Source: an uncultured Pseudomonadota bacterium (GTDB lineage: Bacteria; Myxococcota_A; Polyangia; Fen-1088). From it: DNA of 64,000 bases. Shown here in pieces: positions 33,492-57,003 of this stretch. Numbering within the stretch: the stretch's first letter is position 1; every line of letters begins with the position of its first letter. The position numbers were made by a program, and so were the translations under genes. Under the pieces are notes generated by a model. The model saw nothing but the letters and a program-made list of their open reading frames with translations. It ran no database searches and was not told where the DNA came from. The DNA lies in contig CAWKBC010000034.1 of NCBI GenBank assembly GCA_963847705.1, positions 32,001 through 96,000 on the forward strand. Reading direction: 5' to 3'.

Positions 33492-35157
33492 GTGCTGACC
33501 CTGCTTCGCATCTCGGGCTTCGCGCTGATCGACGAGCTCGAGCTGCCGCTCGGACCTGGCCTCACCGCCGTGACGGGCGAGACGGGCGCCGGGAAGAGCA
33601 TCCTGGTCGACGCGCTGGGGCTGCTGCGGGGCGGGCGCGCCGGCGCCGACGTGATCCGCACCGGCCGCGACGAGGCGCGGGTGGAGGCGATCCTCGAGCT
33701 CCCCGCCGGCTCGGCGACGCGCGCGCGTCTGGTGGCGGACGGGCGGGAGGTCGAAGAGGGGCTGGTCGTGCGGCGGGTGATCGCGCGCGGGGGGCGCGGC
33801 CGCACGCACCTGGGCGGCGGGCTGGCGACGGCCGCCGACCTGGCATCGACGGTGGCGGGCCTCATCGACATCGCCTCGCAGCACGATCAACAGTCGCTGA
33901 CCGATCCGGAGAGCCAGCTGGCGATCCTGGACGCCTTCGCCGAGAACCAGCCGCTGCGCGACGAGATGACGGCGGCGTACGCGGCGCGGGCGGCGACGGC
34001 GGCGGCGCTGGCCTCGTTTTCGGCCGACGCGCGGGCGCGCAGCGAACGGGAAGATCTGTTGCGGTTTCAGCTGGCCGAGCTGGAGGCGGCGGGGCCGGCG
34101 CCTGGTGAGGACGGCGCGCTCGCCGCCGAGCGGGAGCGCCTCAAGGGGGCGGAAAAATTTCTGGCCGCGACCGCGCGCGGCGAGGAGACGCTGTACGCCG
34201 GCGACGGCGCCGTGGCGGAGCGCCTGGCCAGCGTGGCGCGGGAGCTGACGCCGCTGGCGGCGCTCGATCCCGCGCTCGGGCCGCTGGTCGAGCGGCTGGC
34301 CGACGCGCAGGCCGCGATCGAGGATGTCGCGCGCGAGCTCGGCCGCTATGTGCGGGGGATCCGCTCGGACCCGGCCCGACTCGAAGAGGTCGAAGAGCGG
34401 CTCTTCCTGCTGCAGAAGCTCTGCCGCAAGCACGGCGGGACGGTCGCCGATTCTGGCCGCCAAGCAATCGGCACTGCGCGCCGAGCTGGGCGAGCTCGGG
34501 TCCTTCGAAGAGGGGATGGCGGCGCGGCAGGCGGCGGCGAGCGCGGCCGAGGCGCGCGCCAGCGCGGCAGCGGAGGCGCTCAGCGCCTCGCGGCGGCAGG
34601 CGGCGGGCAGCCTGGAGAAGAAGGTCACCGCCGTCCTGCGCGAGCTCGGCTTTGCCTCGGCGCGTCTGCCGGTGGCCGTCGAAGCACGCGACCTCGGTCC
34701 GAACGGCGCCGACCGCGTCCGACTGCTGTTCGCCCCCAACCCCGGCGAGGAGGCGCGTCCGCTGGCCAAGATCGCCTCGGGGGGCGAGCTGTCGCGGGTC
34801 ATGCTGGCGGTCAAGCAGACGCTGGCGCGCACGGACGAGGTGCTGACCTACGTGTTCGACGAGGTCGACGCCGGGATCGGCGGCGGCACGGCCGAGATCG
34901 TCGGGCGTAAGCTGAAGCGCCTGGCGGCTGAGCGGCAGGTCATCGTCATCACGCACCTCCCCCAGGTCGCCGCCTTCGCCGACGCGCACGTGCGCGTCAC
35001 CAAGACGGCTGCGCGCGGCAAGACGCGCGTCGAGATCACCCGCCTCGACGACGCCGACCGCCCCGGGGAGATCGCGCGCATGCTGGCGGGCGCCGCCCCG
35101 TCGGCTCAGGCGACGGCCCACGCGGAAGAGATGCTCCGCAACGCTCGCGCCGACTAG
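33492..35157 (+). pseudogene. recN: DNA repair protein RecN, split by a 1-nt frameshift near 34451 (sequencing error or pseudogene)
   Basis: Walker A TGETGAGKS in ORF 33492; signature ASGGELSR, FDEVD and ITHLPQVA in ORF 34324. GAT-T-CTG contains an extra T. Confidence 0.9.
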
Positions 35158-35241
35158 GAGGGCATCGCCGAAAGGCGACGGTGAGCGAAGCGAACGATGG
35201 ACACTGGCCCGACGACGCGCCGCCCGGTAGGCGGCCTCAGG
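35157..35241. repeat. Structured REP-like dispersed repeat, copy 1
   Basis: Reverse complement matches 56925-57003. Hairpins TCGCC-GAAA-GGCGA and GCCGCC-CGGTA-GGCGGC; core GTGAGCGAAGCGAAC. Confidence 0.85.
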
Positions 35242-35393: not shown

Positions 35394-37121
35394 GTGGCAC
35401 GCAGACGACGCAGACGGCAATCCGGTGAAATGAAGAACTCGCTCAGGCTGAGCGTGCTCTTGGTGGGGTTGGTCGGGATCAACGTCTACGTCTTCTTTTT
35501 CAACCACAAGACGGCGCCGCGCGACGTCCTGAACCTCCAGTCGACGACCAAGACCATGGAGACGACCCGCCGGGAGGTCTTGGCGGCGGACGCCCGTGAG
35601 GCCCGAGAGGCGCTGACGGCCGAGGCTGCTGCCAGGACGACGAGCAAGCCGGCGACAAAGAACAAGCCCCCTGAATCCCGCGCGGAGACGGCCGCGACTG
35701 CAGCGACCAAATCAACCGCGCTGGTGGCCGAGCGGACCGCGCCGGCGGTCGAACCGGCTGTGCCGACGGCCGAAGCGGCCGTGCCGACGGCGGCCGAGGC
35801 CCCGCTGCCGCCACCCGCCCCCCCCAAGCTGCTCTCGCCCAAACCTGATCTCGCCGCGCGAACGTTCGCCGCCAACACCCCCCCACCCCGCGCGGCCTTT
35901 CAGGTCCCCTATGCGCCGCCGCCCGAGCCGATGACGGCCCGCGCCTCGACGCCTCCCCACGCGGCGTTTCAGATCCCCTTCGCGCCGCCGGCCGAGGACG
36001 ACGGTGACGCGCACGAGGACTCGGTCGAGAAGAAGTTCAACAACGCCGACACCCTGGGCCAGGTGCTGGCGCGCGAGGGGTTCGGCCCCGCCGGCCCGCA
36101 GGTGACGGCCGCGCTCGCCAAGCTCTGCGATCCGCGCAGCATCCGCGGCGGGCAGAAGTACGTCGTGCGGCTCGGCGAGGACGGCGCGCCCGCGTCGTTC
36201 GAGTACCAGTCGTCGGCGATCCTCCGCTACCTCGTCGAGAAGGACGAGGAGACCGGCTCGTGGAAAGGCCGCAAGCTGGAGGCGGCGGTCGAGATCAAGA
36301 CCGTCGCGGCCGGCGGCGTCGTCGATTCGTCGCTCTACGAATCAGTCCAGAAGGCGGGCGAGTCGACGGCGCTGGTGAGCCTGCTGGTCGAGCAGTTCGC
36401 CTGGGACGTGAACTTCTATACCGACACCCACCCGGGCGATCACTGGAAGGTGGTCATCGAGAAGCAGTATCTCGGGGGGCAGTTCTACAAGTACGGGCGT
36501 CTCCTGGCAGCGGAGTACGGCGGCAAGGTCGGCACCTTCCGCTCGTTCTTCTGGGCCGGCAAGGGCGCGCCGCGCGACAAGCCGGGCAAGTACTACGACG
36601 ACCACGGACTGGCGATCTCCAAGACCATGCTGAAGACGCCGCTGCGCTACGTACGCATCAGCTCGAAGTTCGACCGCAAGCGCTTCCACCCGATCCTGCA
36701 CGTCGAAAAGGCGCACCTCGGCATCGACTACGCGGCGCCGCAAGGCACGCCGGTCTGGGCCTCGGCCAGCGGGCGCGTGGTCGAGGTGGGCCTCAAGCGC
36801 GGCTCGGGCAACACCATCGTGCTGGCCCACGCCAACGGCCTCTCGACCCGCTACTACCACCTGTCACGCTACGCGCGCGGGCTGCACGTCGGGCAGCAGG
36901 TGAAACAGAAAGAGGTCATCGGCTTCGTCGGAATGACGGGCCTGGCGACGGGACCGCACTTGCACTTCAGCGTCACCAAGAACGGCGCCTTCGTCGATCC
37001 GAGCAAGCTGAACGTGAGCCGCGACGCCCCGGTGCCGGACCACGGCGCCTTCATGGACGCCATCCGCCCCCGCATCGCCGCGCTGAAGGCCATCCAGCCC
37101 GGCGCCGTCGCCGGCAACTAA
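35394..37121 (+). CDS. M23 family peptidoglycan DD-endopeptidase (MepM-like)
   Basis: HLGIDYAAP (HxxxD), YYHLS and TGPHLHF (HxH); N-terminal TM and Pro/Ala-rich linker. Confidence 0.92.
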   Translation: MARRRRRRQSGEMKNSLRLSVLLVGLVGINVYVFFFNHKTAPRDVLNLQSTTKTMETTRREVLAADAREAREALTAEAAARTTSKPATKNKPPESRAETAATAATKSTALVAERTAPAVEPAVPTAEAAVPTAAEAPLPPPAPPKLLSPKPDLAARTFAANTPPPRAAFQVPYAPPPEPMTARASTPPHAAFQIPFAPPAEDDGDAHEDSVEKKFNNADTLGQVLAREGFGPAGPQVTAALAKLCDPRSIRGGQKYVVRLGEDGAPASFEYQSSAILRYLVEKDEETGSWKGRKLEAAVEIKTVAAGGVVDSSLYESVQKAGESTALVSLLVEQFAWDVNFYTDTHPGDHWKVVIEKQYLGGQFYKYGRLLAAEYGGKVGTFRSFFWAGKGAPRDKPGKYYDDHGLAISKTMLKTPLRYVRISSKFDRKRFHPILHVEKAHLGIDYAAPQGTPVWASASGRVVEVGLKRGSGNTIVLAHANGLSTRYYHLSRYARGLHVGQQVKQKEVIGFVGMTGLATGPHLHFSVTKNGAFVDPSKLNVSRDAPVPDHGAFMDAIRPRIAALKAIQPGAVAGN

Positions 37122-37150
37122 CCCCCTCCTGCTCGCTCCGCTCCGCTCCG

Positions 37151-37720
37151 CTCCGCTCCGCTCAACTCTTCGGCGAGGGCGAGGGGGCCGGGAGTTCGGT
37201 CGGCCTCCGCACCCGAGGGGTTGGAATCGGCAGGCGGAACAACAGAGCCGCCTGCCTCAGCTCCGGCCGACCGAACTCCCGGCCCCCTCGCTGGCCGAAA
37301 GAGCAGCGCTCCACTCCGCGCGAAGTCTGACCCTGCCTCCGCGCGAAAGTCTGCACCCTGCTCCGCGCGAAGTCTGCACCCTGCTCCGCGCCGAAAGTCT
37401 GCACCCTGCTCCGCGCGAAGTCTGCACCCTGCCTCCGCGCGAAGTCTGCACCCTGCCTCGCGCGAAAGACCGGACCCCACTCCGTCCGAAGGGCCCGCGC
37501 AGGAAGCGCATCCGGTGGCGGGGAGCGGAGCTCTTTCCGGGGGGCTCGTGCGCAGCGGAGACGAGGTTGAACGCGCGTGCGGGTGGGGCCGGGGAGCTTC
37601 TCGGCCGGAGCTAAGGCGGGCGGCTCTGTTGTTCCGCCCGCCGCTTCCAACCCCTTGGGTGCGGAGGCCGAGGAGCTCCCCGGCCCCGCCCGCCCCCGCC
37701 GGAAACTGAGCGGAGCGGAG
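37151..37720. mobile_element. Composite inverted-repeat element (REPIN/MITE-like) with ~140-bp arms at 37151-37291 and 37579-37720
   Basis: The arms are diverged reverse complements and each folds internally. No ORF with coding signal. Confidence 0.6.
37314..37468. repeat. Tandem array, 23-25-bp unit CTCCGCGCGAAGTCTGCACCCTG, ~6.5 copies
   Basis: Units start at 37314, 37337, 37361, 37384, 37409, 37433 and 37457 (partial), with 1-nt indels between units. Confidence 0.95.
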
Positions 37721-37744: not shown

Positions 37745-39712
37745 CTAAGGAGAAGCCGGGGTGAGCTGGGTGTAGTCGAGGAAGTTGCCGGTCATCATGA
37801 GGAGAGACATGACCGTCCACGACGACTCGTAGTACTCACCGCCGACGAACAGGTTGTCGCCCTTGACCAGGCCGTACGCGCTGTTGAGGAAGGCCTGGTT
37901 GGAGGCGCTGTTCATGGCGCCGACCGCGGCCGGGCCGATGAAGGCCGCCGACTGTCCCTGCGAGACCGTATGCGCCCCCGAGTTCACCGTGCCGTCCATG
38001 TTGTAGCCGTCGACGATGCTGGCGGCCCCGACGCCGCTGAAGAAGCTGCTGGTCAACGCCACGTATTGCTGAGCGCGCGAGGGGTTGAGCGCCGCCGCCG
38101 CGCCCGACGCGCTGGCGCCGTTCAGGCACCAGTCGATCCCGATCCGGAACGGCGTCCGGCAAGCGTCGTACTGGTAGTAGTAGGGACCTGCGCTCGACAT
38201 GCCGCCGGTGTTGGTGGACCAGCCGGGGACCAGCCCGTTGGTGGTGTTTTTGTTGCCTGTGTTGAGCACGTTGCAGAACGTCGTGCCCGACTTGTCGCAG
38301 AGGATCGTGTCGTAGACCGTCTGGGTGACGGCGTCCCAGGTGTGCGTCGAATCGGTGTCCACCTGCTTGAACACGCGGTAGTAGGCCGGCGCAAAGTACG
38401 AGACGTTGACGTCGTTGAAGAGATTGCCCGGCCAGCTGTCGCCGGGACCGGCCAGCTTCGAGCTGTAGACCTCGTGGTTCCAGATGTTCTGGATCTGCGT
38501 CTTGGCCAGGCCGGCGTAGTTGAGTCCGCCGCTCGACCCCCACTGCTTGTCGGCCATCACCAGCGCCCAGGCCATGTCCTCGTCGGCGTCGGTGGCGGCG
38601 CCGCTCTCGGGCTGCCCGTTCACCACCGGCGCGTTCCCACTCGCGTCGACCACCCAGTTCATGAGGCCGTTCGAGTCGGTGTGGAGCTGCTCGTACTTCC
38701 AGAGGTTGTCGAACAGCGTGTGATCGCCCATGTAGACGGCGATGACCATTCCGTAGCCGATCCCCTCGGAGACGGTCGAGTTGAGCGGGGTGGCCCCGGA
38801 CGGGCTGCCGAGCCCGTCGGACGACGTCCGCTGCACGCGCTGGAAGTTGCCCGCCCCGCTGGAGGTGACCAGGTCCGCCTTCCACTTGGTGTAGGCGGCC
38901 ATGACGTCGTTGTTGTCGTAGGCCGTCGGGTAGGTGCAGCCCGACATCTGGCGGTTCTGGGGGAACGGAAAGTTCGTTCCGTTCGAGGGCGGCGTCGGTC
39001 CGCGCGAGAGGCCCCCCGTCCCGGAGACGCCACCCGTGGCCCCCCCGGCGCCGCCGGCCCCCGCGCCGCCGGCCGAACCGCCCGTGCCGGTGCTGGCGGT
39101 CGCGCAGGTTCCGTTGCTGCAGGTCTGGCCGCTGGCGCAGGCGTGACCGCAGCTGCCGCAGTTGCCTGCGTTGGAGGTGGTATCGATGCAGCTCCCGCCG
39201 CACAGCTGCTGGCCGGAGACGGTGCAGCTGCAGATCCCGCTCACGCAGGAAGAGCCGGAGCCGCAGGCGGTGCCGCACGTTCCGCAGTCGGCCGCGTTCG
39301 ACGGCCCGCTGCAGGTGCCGTCCGTGCATTTCGTCCCCGACGTGCAGGTCGACGAGCAGGTCCCCGTGCTGTCGCAGACGTCGCCGCTCGCGCACGCCGC
39401 GCAACTGGCGCCGCAGTGGTCGGGGCTCGACTGGACGCAGGTGCCGCCACAGCTCACGAAGCCGCCCGTGCAAACGCAGGAACCCGCCGAGCAGGTGCTG
39501 CCGCTCCCGCAGGCCTTGCCGCACGTCCCGCAGTTCTGGCTGTCGCCCTGCAGGTTGACGCAGGTGGTGCCGCACTGCATCTGACCGGAGCTACAGGAAG
39601 ATCCCGTTCCCCCGGACCCGCCCCGTATCGGCGGCGTGCACGACGCCAGCGACCCCGCGGCCAGGCCGCCGACCAAGAGAACAAAGAGAGTCCTGAGGGG
39701 TGTGAGCTTCAT
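37745..39712 (-). CDS. Glycoside hydrolase family 8 lipoprotein with N-terminal Cys-rich repeats
   Basis: Lipobox LASC; NCGxCGxAC repeats; GH8 motifs TVSEGIGYGM, ATDADEDMA, SYFAPAYY, YDACR. Confidence 0.9.
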   Translation of the reverse strand: MKLTPLRTLFVLLVGGLAAGSLASCTPPIRGGSGGTGSSCSSGQMQCGTTCVNLQGDSQNCGTCGKACGSGSTCSAGSCVCTGGFVSCGGTCVQSSPDHCGASCAACASGDVCDSTGTCSSTCTSGTKCTDGTCSGPSNAADCGTCGTACGSGSSCVSGICSCTVSGQQLCGGSCIDTTSNAGNCGSCGHACASGQTCSNGTCATASTGTGGSAGGAGAGGAGGATGGVSGTGGLSRGPTPPSNGTNFPFPQNRQMSGCTYPTAYDNNDVMAAYTKWKADLVTSSGAGNFQRVQRTSSDGLGSPSGATPLNSTVSEGIGYGMVIAVYMGDHTLFDNLWKYEQLHTDSNGLMNWVVDASGNAPVVNGQPESGAATDADEDMAWALVMADKQWGSSGGLNYAGLAKTQIQNIWNHEVYSSKLAGPGDSWPGNLFNDVNVSYFAPAYYRVFKQVDTDSTHTWDAVTQTVYDTILCDKSGTTFCNVLNTGNKNTTNGLVPGWSTNTGGMSSAGPYYYQYDACRTPFRIGIDWCLNGASASGAAAALNPSRAQQYVALTSSFFSGVGAASIVDGYNMDGTVNSGAHTVSQGQSAAFIGPAAVGAMNSASNQAFLNSAYGLVKGDNLFVGGEYYESSWTVMSLLMMTGNFLDYTQLTPASP

Positions 39713-56509: not shown

Positions 56510-56929
56510 ATGAGTGACCAAATGTTCGACACGTTTCGCAAGGCGTCCGAGTCCTGGGTGAAGATGCAGCAGGACCTGTTTCAAACCGGCGCGCCGGCGT
56601 CGTTTTTCACTCCGCCCCAGGGGGCGGGCGTCGCGCCCGAATGGGCCCGCAACGCCCAGAAGAAATGCATCGATCTGGCGGCGGAGATCCTGGAACGGCA
56701 GCGTGAGTCGGTCGACGCGCTGTTCAAGTCGTCGATCAACCTGCTGCAGCAGACATCGCAGATCTCCGAAGCGAAGTCGTCGGAGGACTATCGCCGCGCG
56801 GCGGAGGATCTCTGGCGCAAGTGGTTCGAGAGCGTCAAGAGCCACTCTGAGACCCAGTTCCGGGACGTTCAGACGTTCGCGGGGAAGTCGCTGGAGATCG
56901 TTCAAAGCGCGCAGAATGCGCAGGCCTGA
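56510..56929 (+). CDS. Phasin-like helical protein 1
   Basis: AGGAGG RBS; amphipathic helical 139 aa; pha context; paralog of the next ORF. Confidence 0.6.
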   Translation: MSDQMFDTFRKASESWVKMQQDLFQTGAPASFFTPPQGAGVAPEWARNAQKKCIDLAAEILERQRESVDALFKSSINLLQQTSQISEAKSSEDYRRAAEDLWRKWFESVKSHSETQFRDVQTFAGKSLEIVQSAQNAQA

Positions 56930-57003
56930 GGCCGCCTATCGGGCGGCACCTCGTCGGGGCATGGTTCGCTTCGCTCACCGTTCGCCTTTCGGCGACGCTC
57001 TCC
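56925..57003. repeat. Structured REP-like dispersed repeat, copy 2 (inverted relative to copy 1)
   Basis: CCTGAGGCCGCCTATCGGGCGGC...GTTCGCTTCGCTCACCG.TCGCCTTTCGGCGA matches the reverse complement of 35157-35241. Confidence 0.85.

Follow-up and report, generated by a model that had tools for sequence, protein, structure and literature searches.

The DNA analysed here is a stretch of 64,000 nt (the window) from a genome of 69% GC and 85% completeness (G000), in which two inverted structured repeat arms lie between the ends of two convergent genes. On the left, an M23 peptidase gene (Csd3/MepM-like; 35394..37121, plus strand) stops 29 nt before the left arm, and on the right, a GH8 glycoside hydrolase gene (Stig1-repeat; 37745..39712, minus strand) has its stop 24 nt outside the right arm. 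The left arm, of a type termed L, folds on the minus strand and occupies 37151..37320; the right arm, of type R and inverted with respect to the left one, folds on the plus strand and occupies 37551..37720. Both arms are therefore ~170 nt long and not ~140 nt, as a previous sequence-only reading of this DNA had stated. Its observation that the arms share a common start just past the convergent stops was corroborated, as the 14 outermost bases are identical and lie 29 and 24 nt from the respective stops. A run of six CTCCG pentamers (37134..37163, plus strand), which reads (GCGGA)n on the other strand, contributes its inner copies to the left arm, whose outer end they form.

The outer stem P1 of the left arm (37179-37205 with 37265-37291, overall 37179..37291, folding on the minus strand like all elements of this arm) comprises 27 nt on each side with the 100% complementarity claimed before. 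This outer helix extends via a 3x3 internal loop with GGA facing GGA (37206-37208 and 37262-37264) and two further pairs (37209-37210 with 37260-37261) up to a three-way junction. Along the folding strand, P1, the 3x3 loop and the two pairs are followed by the junction with P2 (a 9-bp stem with a conserved, pyrimidine-rich 10-nt loop, 37229..37256), the unpaired GATTCC of a conserved junction strand (GATTCCA, 37222..37228) and P3 (a 4-bp hairpin with a 3-nt loop, 37211..37221, in which two of the four pairs change on both sides). The right arm shows the same arrangement on the plus strand, with P1 at 37579-37606 and 37666-37693 (overall 37579..37693), the GGA/GGA loop at 37607-37609 and 37663-37665, P2 at 37615-37642, the junction strand at 37643-37649 and P3 at 37650-37660. 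The differences between the arms were found as described in the earlier reading: the inner hairpin at 37229-37256 is present with its stem and loop, the loop is retained in the right arm together with an exchange of one stem pair from A-T to G-C, and the 28-bp outer stem of the right arm contains two non-Watson-Crick pairs, each a G·T when read on the strand that bears the CTCTGTTGTT loop. Compared with 200 shuffles, folding z-scores ranged from -7 to -10 for either strand of each arm, whether treated as RNA or DNA. The arms are separated by a 227-nt spacer (37321..37550), the longest among 57 doublets (the shortest measures 9 nt). The tandem repeat of the window, a 23-nt unit in 6.5 copies (37314..37466, plus strand), is an expansion of the L-arm tail and the short linker that is found in compact doublets.

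Profile searches of the genome of the window revealed 12 full arms and one fragment, arranged as four inward-facing doublets and four singlets. Of 26 genomes from the genus, 14 contain arms according to a covariance model, which detected none in 63 other genomes of the family and none in 145 other genomes of the class, and a DNA search of 300 genomes of the phylum returned two short, weak matches only; one weak match of 32 nt was recorded outside the genus. Pattern searches gave 43 matches in the genome collection and 72 matching stretches in metagenomes, no match in viral contigs with three patterns and none in plasmids and phages. The check for further copies that had been proposed was positive. 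Three arm types were distinguished, namely L, R and a shorter type S2. No Rfam family reached its gathering score, the only hits being chance matches to miRNA hairpins far below the cut-off, and Rfam searches of eight loci returned no match. No ribozyme family scored either, in line with the sequence-only reading, which had recognised no known ribozyme core. No paper on the family was found in the literature, where subscription journals and supplementary repeat catalogues could hold one. The family is real and apparently undescribed, and it represents a structured repeat restricted to one genus. Copies, covariation and the missing Rfam match support the assignment as an uncharacterised structured repeat family of REPIN/MITE-like kind; of the two options offered originally, the REPIN/MITE reading stood, and the ncRNA-motif or ribozyme alternatives proved weaker in view of unrelated neighbouring genes, often-empty orthologous sites and the lack of any ribozyme score.

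Covariation was evaluated on 43 equal-length cores out of 76, with three shorter ones that passed the filter left out. RNAalifold on a first MAFFT alignment had produced a wrong structure with misaligned stems of L, R and S2 arms, and the equal-length alignment was used instead. Among the 43 cores, pairing was retained in 98.3% of the cells, 20 of 33 pairs vary in both partners and all four helices covary. None of 500 shuffles came near these values, a count that is not a probability because the copies are related, and a slid control was likewise nowhere near the observed covariation. The supposition that structure is kept over sequence, for which a covariance model had been suggested, was hereby substantiated. 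The sole covariation outside the helices is an exchange from G·A to A·C at columns 25 and 56, across the junction end of P2 (113 and 12 of 129, respectively). The P2 loop covaries with no other segment, and the invariance of its columns is partly built in, since the loop served as search anchor.

The mismatches tolerated within the helices are distributed unequally between the strands. On the strand carrying the pyrimidine-rich loop, 98 G·T mismatches were counted versus 13 A·C (138 of 150 cores), the counts being non-independent as 38 of the 98 G·T cells belong to one position, and same-strand G·A (33) exceeded C·T (4) in the same cores. Within the inner 19 positions, G·T was found 87 times and recurrently, and A·C five times, each as a single case. 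The tolerated mismatches point to one folding strand, the purine-rich one, which was calculated to be the more stable strand in 135 of 170 arms as DNA and in 120 of 170 as RNA. This strand is antisense to the nearest gene; consequently, deamination of the non-template strand would be expected to bias the mismatches in the opposite direction. Of 138 cores, 96 have GNA/GNA in the 3x3 loop of P1 next to the junction and 20 have nothing but Watson-Crick pairs there, which fixes the register of this loop.

A related motif occurs at the foot of the arms, whose ends, resembling direct repeats, read GC-GNA-GC on the folding strand. These ends could pair with each other and thereby close the foot of the arm via G·A motifs. 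The middle base of the motif and a bulged base vary as expected from this terminal-pairing model, N being G in 92 of 108 leaders; in the examples shown, no such terminal G·A pairing emerged from energy folding. A reading of the UGA/GAU pairs as k-turns was compared with the k-turn consensus and rejected, as the motif is not retained in the G013 and S2 subfamilies. Guanine zippers arise in DNA where GGA is opposed to GGA, and duplexes of this kind are favoured by GNA with N = G (PMC11014236). In the human satellite III zipper, built of the pentamer repeat (ATGGA)n, GGA faces GGA between self-complementary dinucleotides and on the purine-rich strand only (PMC11014236), an arrangement that the present arms would share. 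Judged by this likeness, (GCGGA)n may be regarded as a GC analogue of the satellite-III repeat, the analogy between (GCGGA)n and (ATGGA)n (PMC11014236) being a structural one that concerns few units of a bacterial repeat.

Neighbouring arms face inward in all 57 pairs, 48 of which combine an L with an R arm, and 52 further arms are singlets. In 31 of the 57 doublets the linker measures 9-27 nt and has a recurring sequence, and the unit is likely the doublet rather than the single arm. The partner of the L arm in genome G013 is often a different structured module of 190 nt, which has similar ends and no three-way-junction core; this module was seen at G013 loci only (L018, L029, L032, L033, L035, L036 and L290). 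Of 193 outer ends, 160 have a stop codon of the same strand no more than 50 nt away, a closeness for which short convergent gaps (median 37 nt) partly account. For stops within 8 nt of an arm, TAG amounts to 45 of 65, versus 233 of 608 at the convergent junctions of the window's genome, with the stop counts being non-independent since sites are common to several genomes. Among these close stops, 12 of 65 read GTAG and 27 of 65 CTAG, and the outer flanks vary. The neighbours are housekeeping genes without functional relation to one another (scanned: 81 of 107 and 92 of 102 ORFs in the flanks), and no reverse transcriptase (RT) was present among the 173 flanking proteins scanned. Neither a promoter nor an intrinsic terminator was found at the arms, a U-tailed terminator included. 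No target-site duplication was evident in the arm flanks, and the empty sites are too diverged for comparison.

At the orthologous M23/GH8 site, the end of the M23 gene was located in 23 genomes. In 12 of them, the GH8 gene follows within ~20-65 nt without any arm, and eight of these 12 carry arms elsewhere. When occupied, the site differs from genome to genome: the window's genome has L/R, G001 a half L followed by R/L, and G021 a half R followed by S2/S2. Half-arms stacked before full arms are common. Furthermore, 50 of 83 arms have their nearest neighbour within their own genome, compared to 12.4 expected; this applies to 20 of 20 arms in G013, 11 of 11 in G019 and 1 of 12 in the window's genome. 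Movement within genomes is thus supported by an orthologous site that is empty or refilled and by within-genome expansions (50/83). Some copies of the window's genome are located at the identical site in G021 with compensatory changes kept, and a third locus there holds another type. The low same-genome score (1/12) together with the sites common with G021 implies that the copies in the window's genome are old and inherited, and the sharing of sites along with the differing type at the third locus indicates persistence of the family as well as replacement at the same site.

With respect to a mobilising enzyme, no gene enclosed by arms was detected at any locus examined, except for IS110 elements inserted into arms. 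The RAYT/IS200 transposase that the sequence-only reading had suggested to look for was not encountered between arms at 59 Y1/GIY-YIG loci or 30 Y1 loci, which at a genome completeness of 68-95% does not prove the absence of an arm-flanked RAYT; likewise, none of 30 loci with GIY-YIG genes in 25 genomes carried arms. Family searches in the window's genome with PF01797 (Y1), PF04480 (DUF559) and PF01548 (IS110) gave no match, and neither did PF04986, which is uninformative as its control matched nowhere. By tblastn, however, a Y1/HUH protein that PF01797 had overlooked was identified in three copies in this genome (C47:43530-44760, C29:169386-170558 and C2:31361-32330; further Y1 elements at loci L305 and L310-L339). 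The protein, encoded at C47:43829-44521 in one of the copies, comprises 231 aa, matches a RAYT model weakly and has no sequence match in the PDB. Each copy sits in an IS-like element with outer terminal inverted repeats (TIRs) and inner inverted repeats. TIR-only remnants were noted at C19, C21, C30 and C34 of the window's genome.

The Y1 family occurs in 17 of 26 genomes of the genus with up to 48 matches (G020), and TAG is located immediately outside 16 of 26 TIR matches of the Y1 element. The TIR abuts arms at nine metagenome loci, on both L and R ends, seemingly in one lineage; by score, TIRs were found at 7 of 194 flanks versus 3 of 4232 controls. A general TIR remnant at every arm end was rejected, as 187 of 194 flanks, those in the window included, are without TIR. 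The distributions of enzyme and arms do not coincide: G003 and G018 have arms without a Y1 match, G004, G015 and G022 have Y1 without arms, and G020 with its 48 matches has three arms. The TIR-flanked Y1/HUH family of the genus is nevertheless the best candidate for the enzyme. A distant low-copy Y1 clade of ~50% identity, without TIRs and with a conserved upstream motif, lies beside nuoN or a tRNA gene in some genomes (L099, L100, L101, L104, L109, L322-L326 and L338).

Other enzymes were considered as well. Three IS110-family elements reside inside arms of metagenome contigs (L229:706-2146, L276:700-1997 and L257:175-1635). Two of them represent one IS1111-like element, which carries sub-terminal inverted repeats and has inserted at two similar sites. 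The third belongs to the IS110 group and sits at an AG core; short stretches of the non-coding region upstream in this element match the flanks of target and donor. No intact IS110 and one short remnant were found in the window's genome. As IS110 elements are known to target REPs (PMC1525189), those within the arms are better read as parasites. The three insertions resemble such REP targeting (PMC1525189) but comprise three positions and two IS groups, all on metagenome contigs. The sole RT match in the window's genome (L052:940-2742, on C12) is a low-GC defence RT of UG9 type, distant from any arm, and was rejected as cognate enzyme for these reasons. With no adjacent or cognate RT found, the arms were not assigned to retron or group II intron derivatives.

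Among known systems, the REPINs of Pseudomonas fluorescens with their RAYT are similar, as they are extragenic inverted doublets described as the likely replicative unit, with singlets as remnants, a variable spacer and a patchy, lineage-bound spread (PMC3116915). The REP arms described there are short, usually identical and form one hairpin per doublet (PMC3116915), whereas the 170-nt arms of the present family self-fold into a three-way junction, 48 of 57 pairs are L+R and no RAYT flanked by arms was found at the 59 Y1/GIY-YIG and 30 Y1 loci. The family is REPIN-like in its working, but with 170-nt self-folding arms, no fixed foot and no flanked RAYT it stands outside REPIN membership. The GTAG/CGTC REPs and the TIRtrons/TIRYT have several features in common with the arms, namely heterodimers next to the 3' ends of convergent genes, an outer TAG, stems containing G·T pairs and, for some families, the lack of a known transposase (PMC3733652, PMC6006769). 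Their stems, as given in PMC3733652, measure 5-13 bp and have an invariable foot, either GTAG or CGTC, in contrast to ~27 bp, no fixed foot and GC-GNA-GC ends in the arms studied here. TIR-flanked Y1 genes, which occur in the same genomes, are a described category (PMC6006769), the available text of which does not contain 'Myxococc'. The bcr1 repeat of the Bacillus cereus group (~155 bp) corresponds in size, in a long stem with two inner stem-loops, in compensatory changes and in non-conserved genomic positions (PMC3184786), and a multibranch fold of ~150-170 nt kept by compensatory changes, as in bcr1-like repeats, was found in the arms. This likeness is one of description: bcr1 belongs to another phylum, and the published account gives it 5-bp direct repeats and transcription and does not present it as an obligate inverted heterodimer (PMC3184786).

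On balance, we slightly favour a non-autonomous REPIN-like doublet whose arms fold as ssDNA, with a Y1/HUH enzyme acting in trans to cut and reinsert them. According to this proposal, the L and R halves would constitute one gene-less doublet spreading as a whole between the ends of genes, each arm would fold on its purine-rich strand as ssDNA, and a RAYT-like Y1/HUH transposase encoded elsewhere would recognise and cut the folded arm. The fold may be pictured as a rod of ~170 nt, its foot presumably closed by the G·A motifs (GC-GNA-GC versus GC-GNA-GC) and its cap being the three-way junction, which would display GATTCC and the P2 loop. Copies would insert just past stops, preferably TAG, and often into older copies, leaving half-arms, and spacers would probably lengthen by slippage. 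A further-reaching version is rather unlikely, namely a new ssDNA mobile element with unequal three-way-junction ends and satellite-III-like guanine zippers, the TIR-flanked Y1 of which aims at TAG stops and at its own older copies.

A bias towards G·T and G·A is equally compatible with RNA and with DNA. G·T pairing in REPs has been taken as a sign of RNA function (PMC3733652), and the bcr1 repeat is transcribed (PMC3184786). Each convergent transcript would then receive a folded arm at its far 3' end, serving as a two-way processing signal, stabiliser or read-through barrier that is kept by the host and whose copies spread via recombination or gene conversion. We consider this doubtful, albeit with a real chance, and it may coexist with the ssDNA doublet. 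It would explain the outer ends past stop codons, the one-strand G·U and G·A bias and the orthologous-site copies kept with compensatory changes; the non-helical exchange at columns 25/56, from G·A to A·C, would suit a tertiary pair in RNA, and short RNA-library contigs overlap arms, although these contigs from two soil RNA runs are unstranded, possibly DNA and uninformative on expression. The antisense orientation of the folding strand relative to the nearest gene, the majority of relatives without arm at the M23/GH8 site and the missing U-tailed terminator argue against it, and the L+R rule and the stacked half-arms stay unexplained. A self-cleaving or otherwise catalytic arm that spreads via an RNA intermediate would agree with the strand bias, with a three-way junction bearing conserved unpaired bases and with the many fragments retaining the 3' part of the folding strand. 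It is nonetheless very improbable, since no ribozyme family appeared at E<=10 or at gathering score, the hammerhead core (CUGANGA and GAAA) is absent, the P2 loop lacks a covarying partner, the sole RT of the window's genome is the UG9 defence type and obligate inverted L+R pairs are not expected from such an RNA.

The arms could also be MITE cargo of the TIR-flanked Y1 transposon or of IS110 recombinases, the fold not being what the enzyme reads. The TIR-like ends beside arms at nine loci (7/194 flanks compared to 3/4232 controls) and the three IS110-family elements inside arms (L229, L257, L276) are in favour of this explanation, which is unlikely given the 187 of 194 flanks without TIR, including the window, the lack of an intact IS110 in its genome, the better reading of the IS110s as parasites and the selection on the fold that would be left unexplained. 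Hardly credible is finally a mutational by-product, in which template switching perfects quasi-palindromes and gene conversion homogenises the arms with no selection on the fold. The outer stems are indeed near-perfect palindromes and both arms of one G021 doublet share one change, but neither the one-strand excess of G·T and G·A nor covariation in helices of 2 and 4 bp with conserved unpaired junction bases is predicted by such a process.

How REP-like repeats without linked transposase spread, and whether they fold as DNA or RNA, is an open question for the CGTC repeats (PMC3733652). The present family is a good test case, as it combines a large covarying fold of four helices with a clear strand bias, two fixed end types, a candidate enzyme and sites found empty or refilled. 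Should its G·A motifs form in DNA, the family would represent a guanine-zipper fold put to natural use in bacteria; if they do not, it would be one more genus-specific structured repeat of an uncultured lineage.

Besides the arms, two further repeats and one gene oddity were noticed. An intergenic repeat of ~75 bp with GC-GAA-GC motifs is located at 35156-35237 and 56929-57003 of the window and gave 46 BLAST hits in its genome. A third repeat family, consisting of GAGC(A/G)AAGCTC and a GGGAACCC...GGGTTCCC hairpin and often arranged in tandem, was observed at C14, C16, C18, C32, C35 and others of the same genome. Furthermore, recN (33492-35157 of the window) is split over two frames covering the profile positions 1-326 and 330-562, which may reflect a frameshift or an assembly error.
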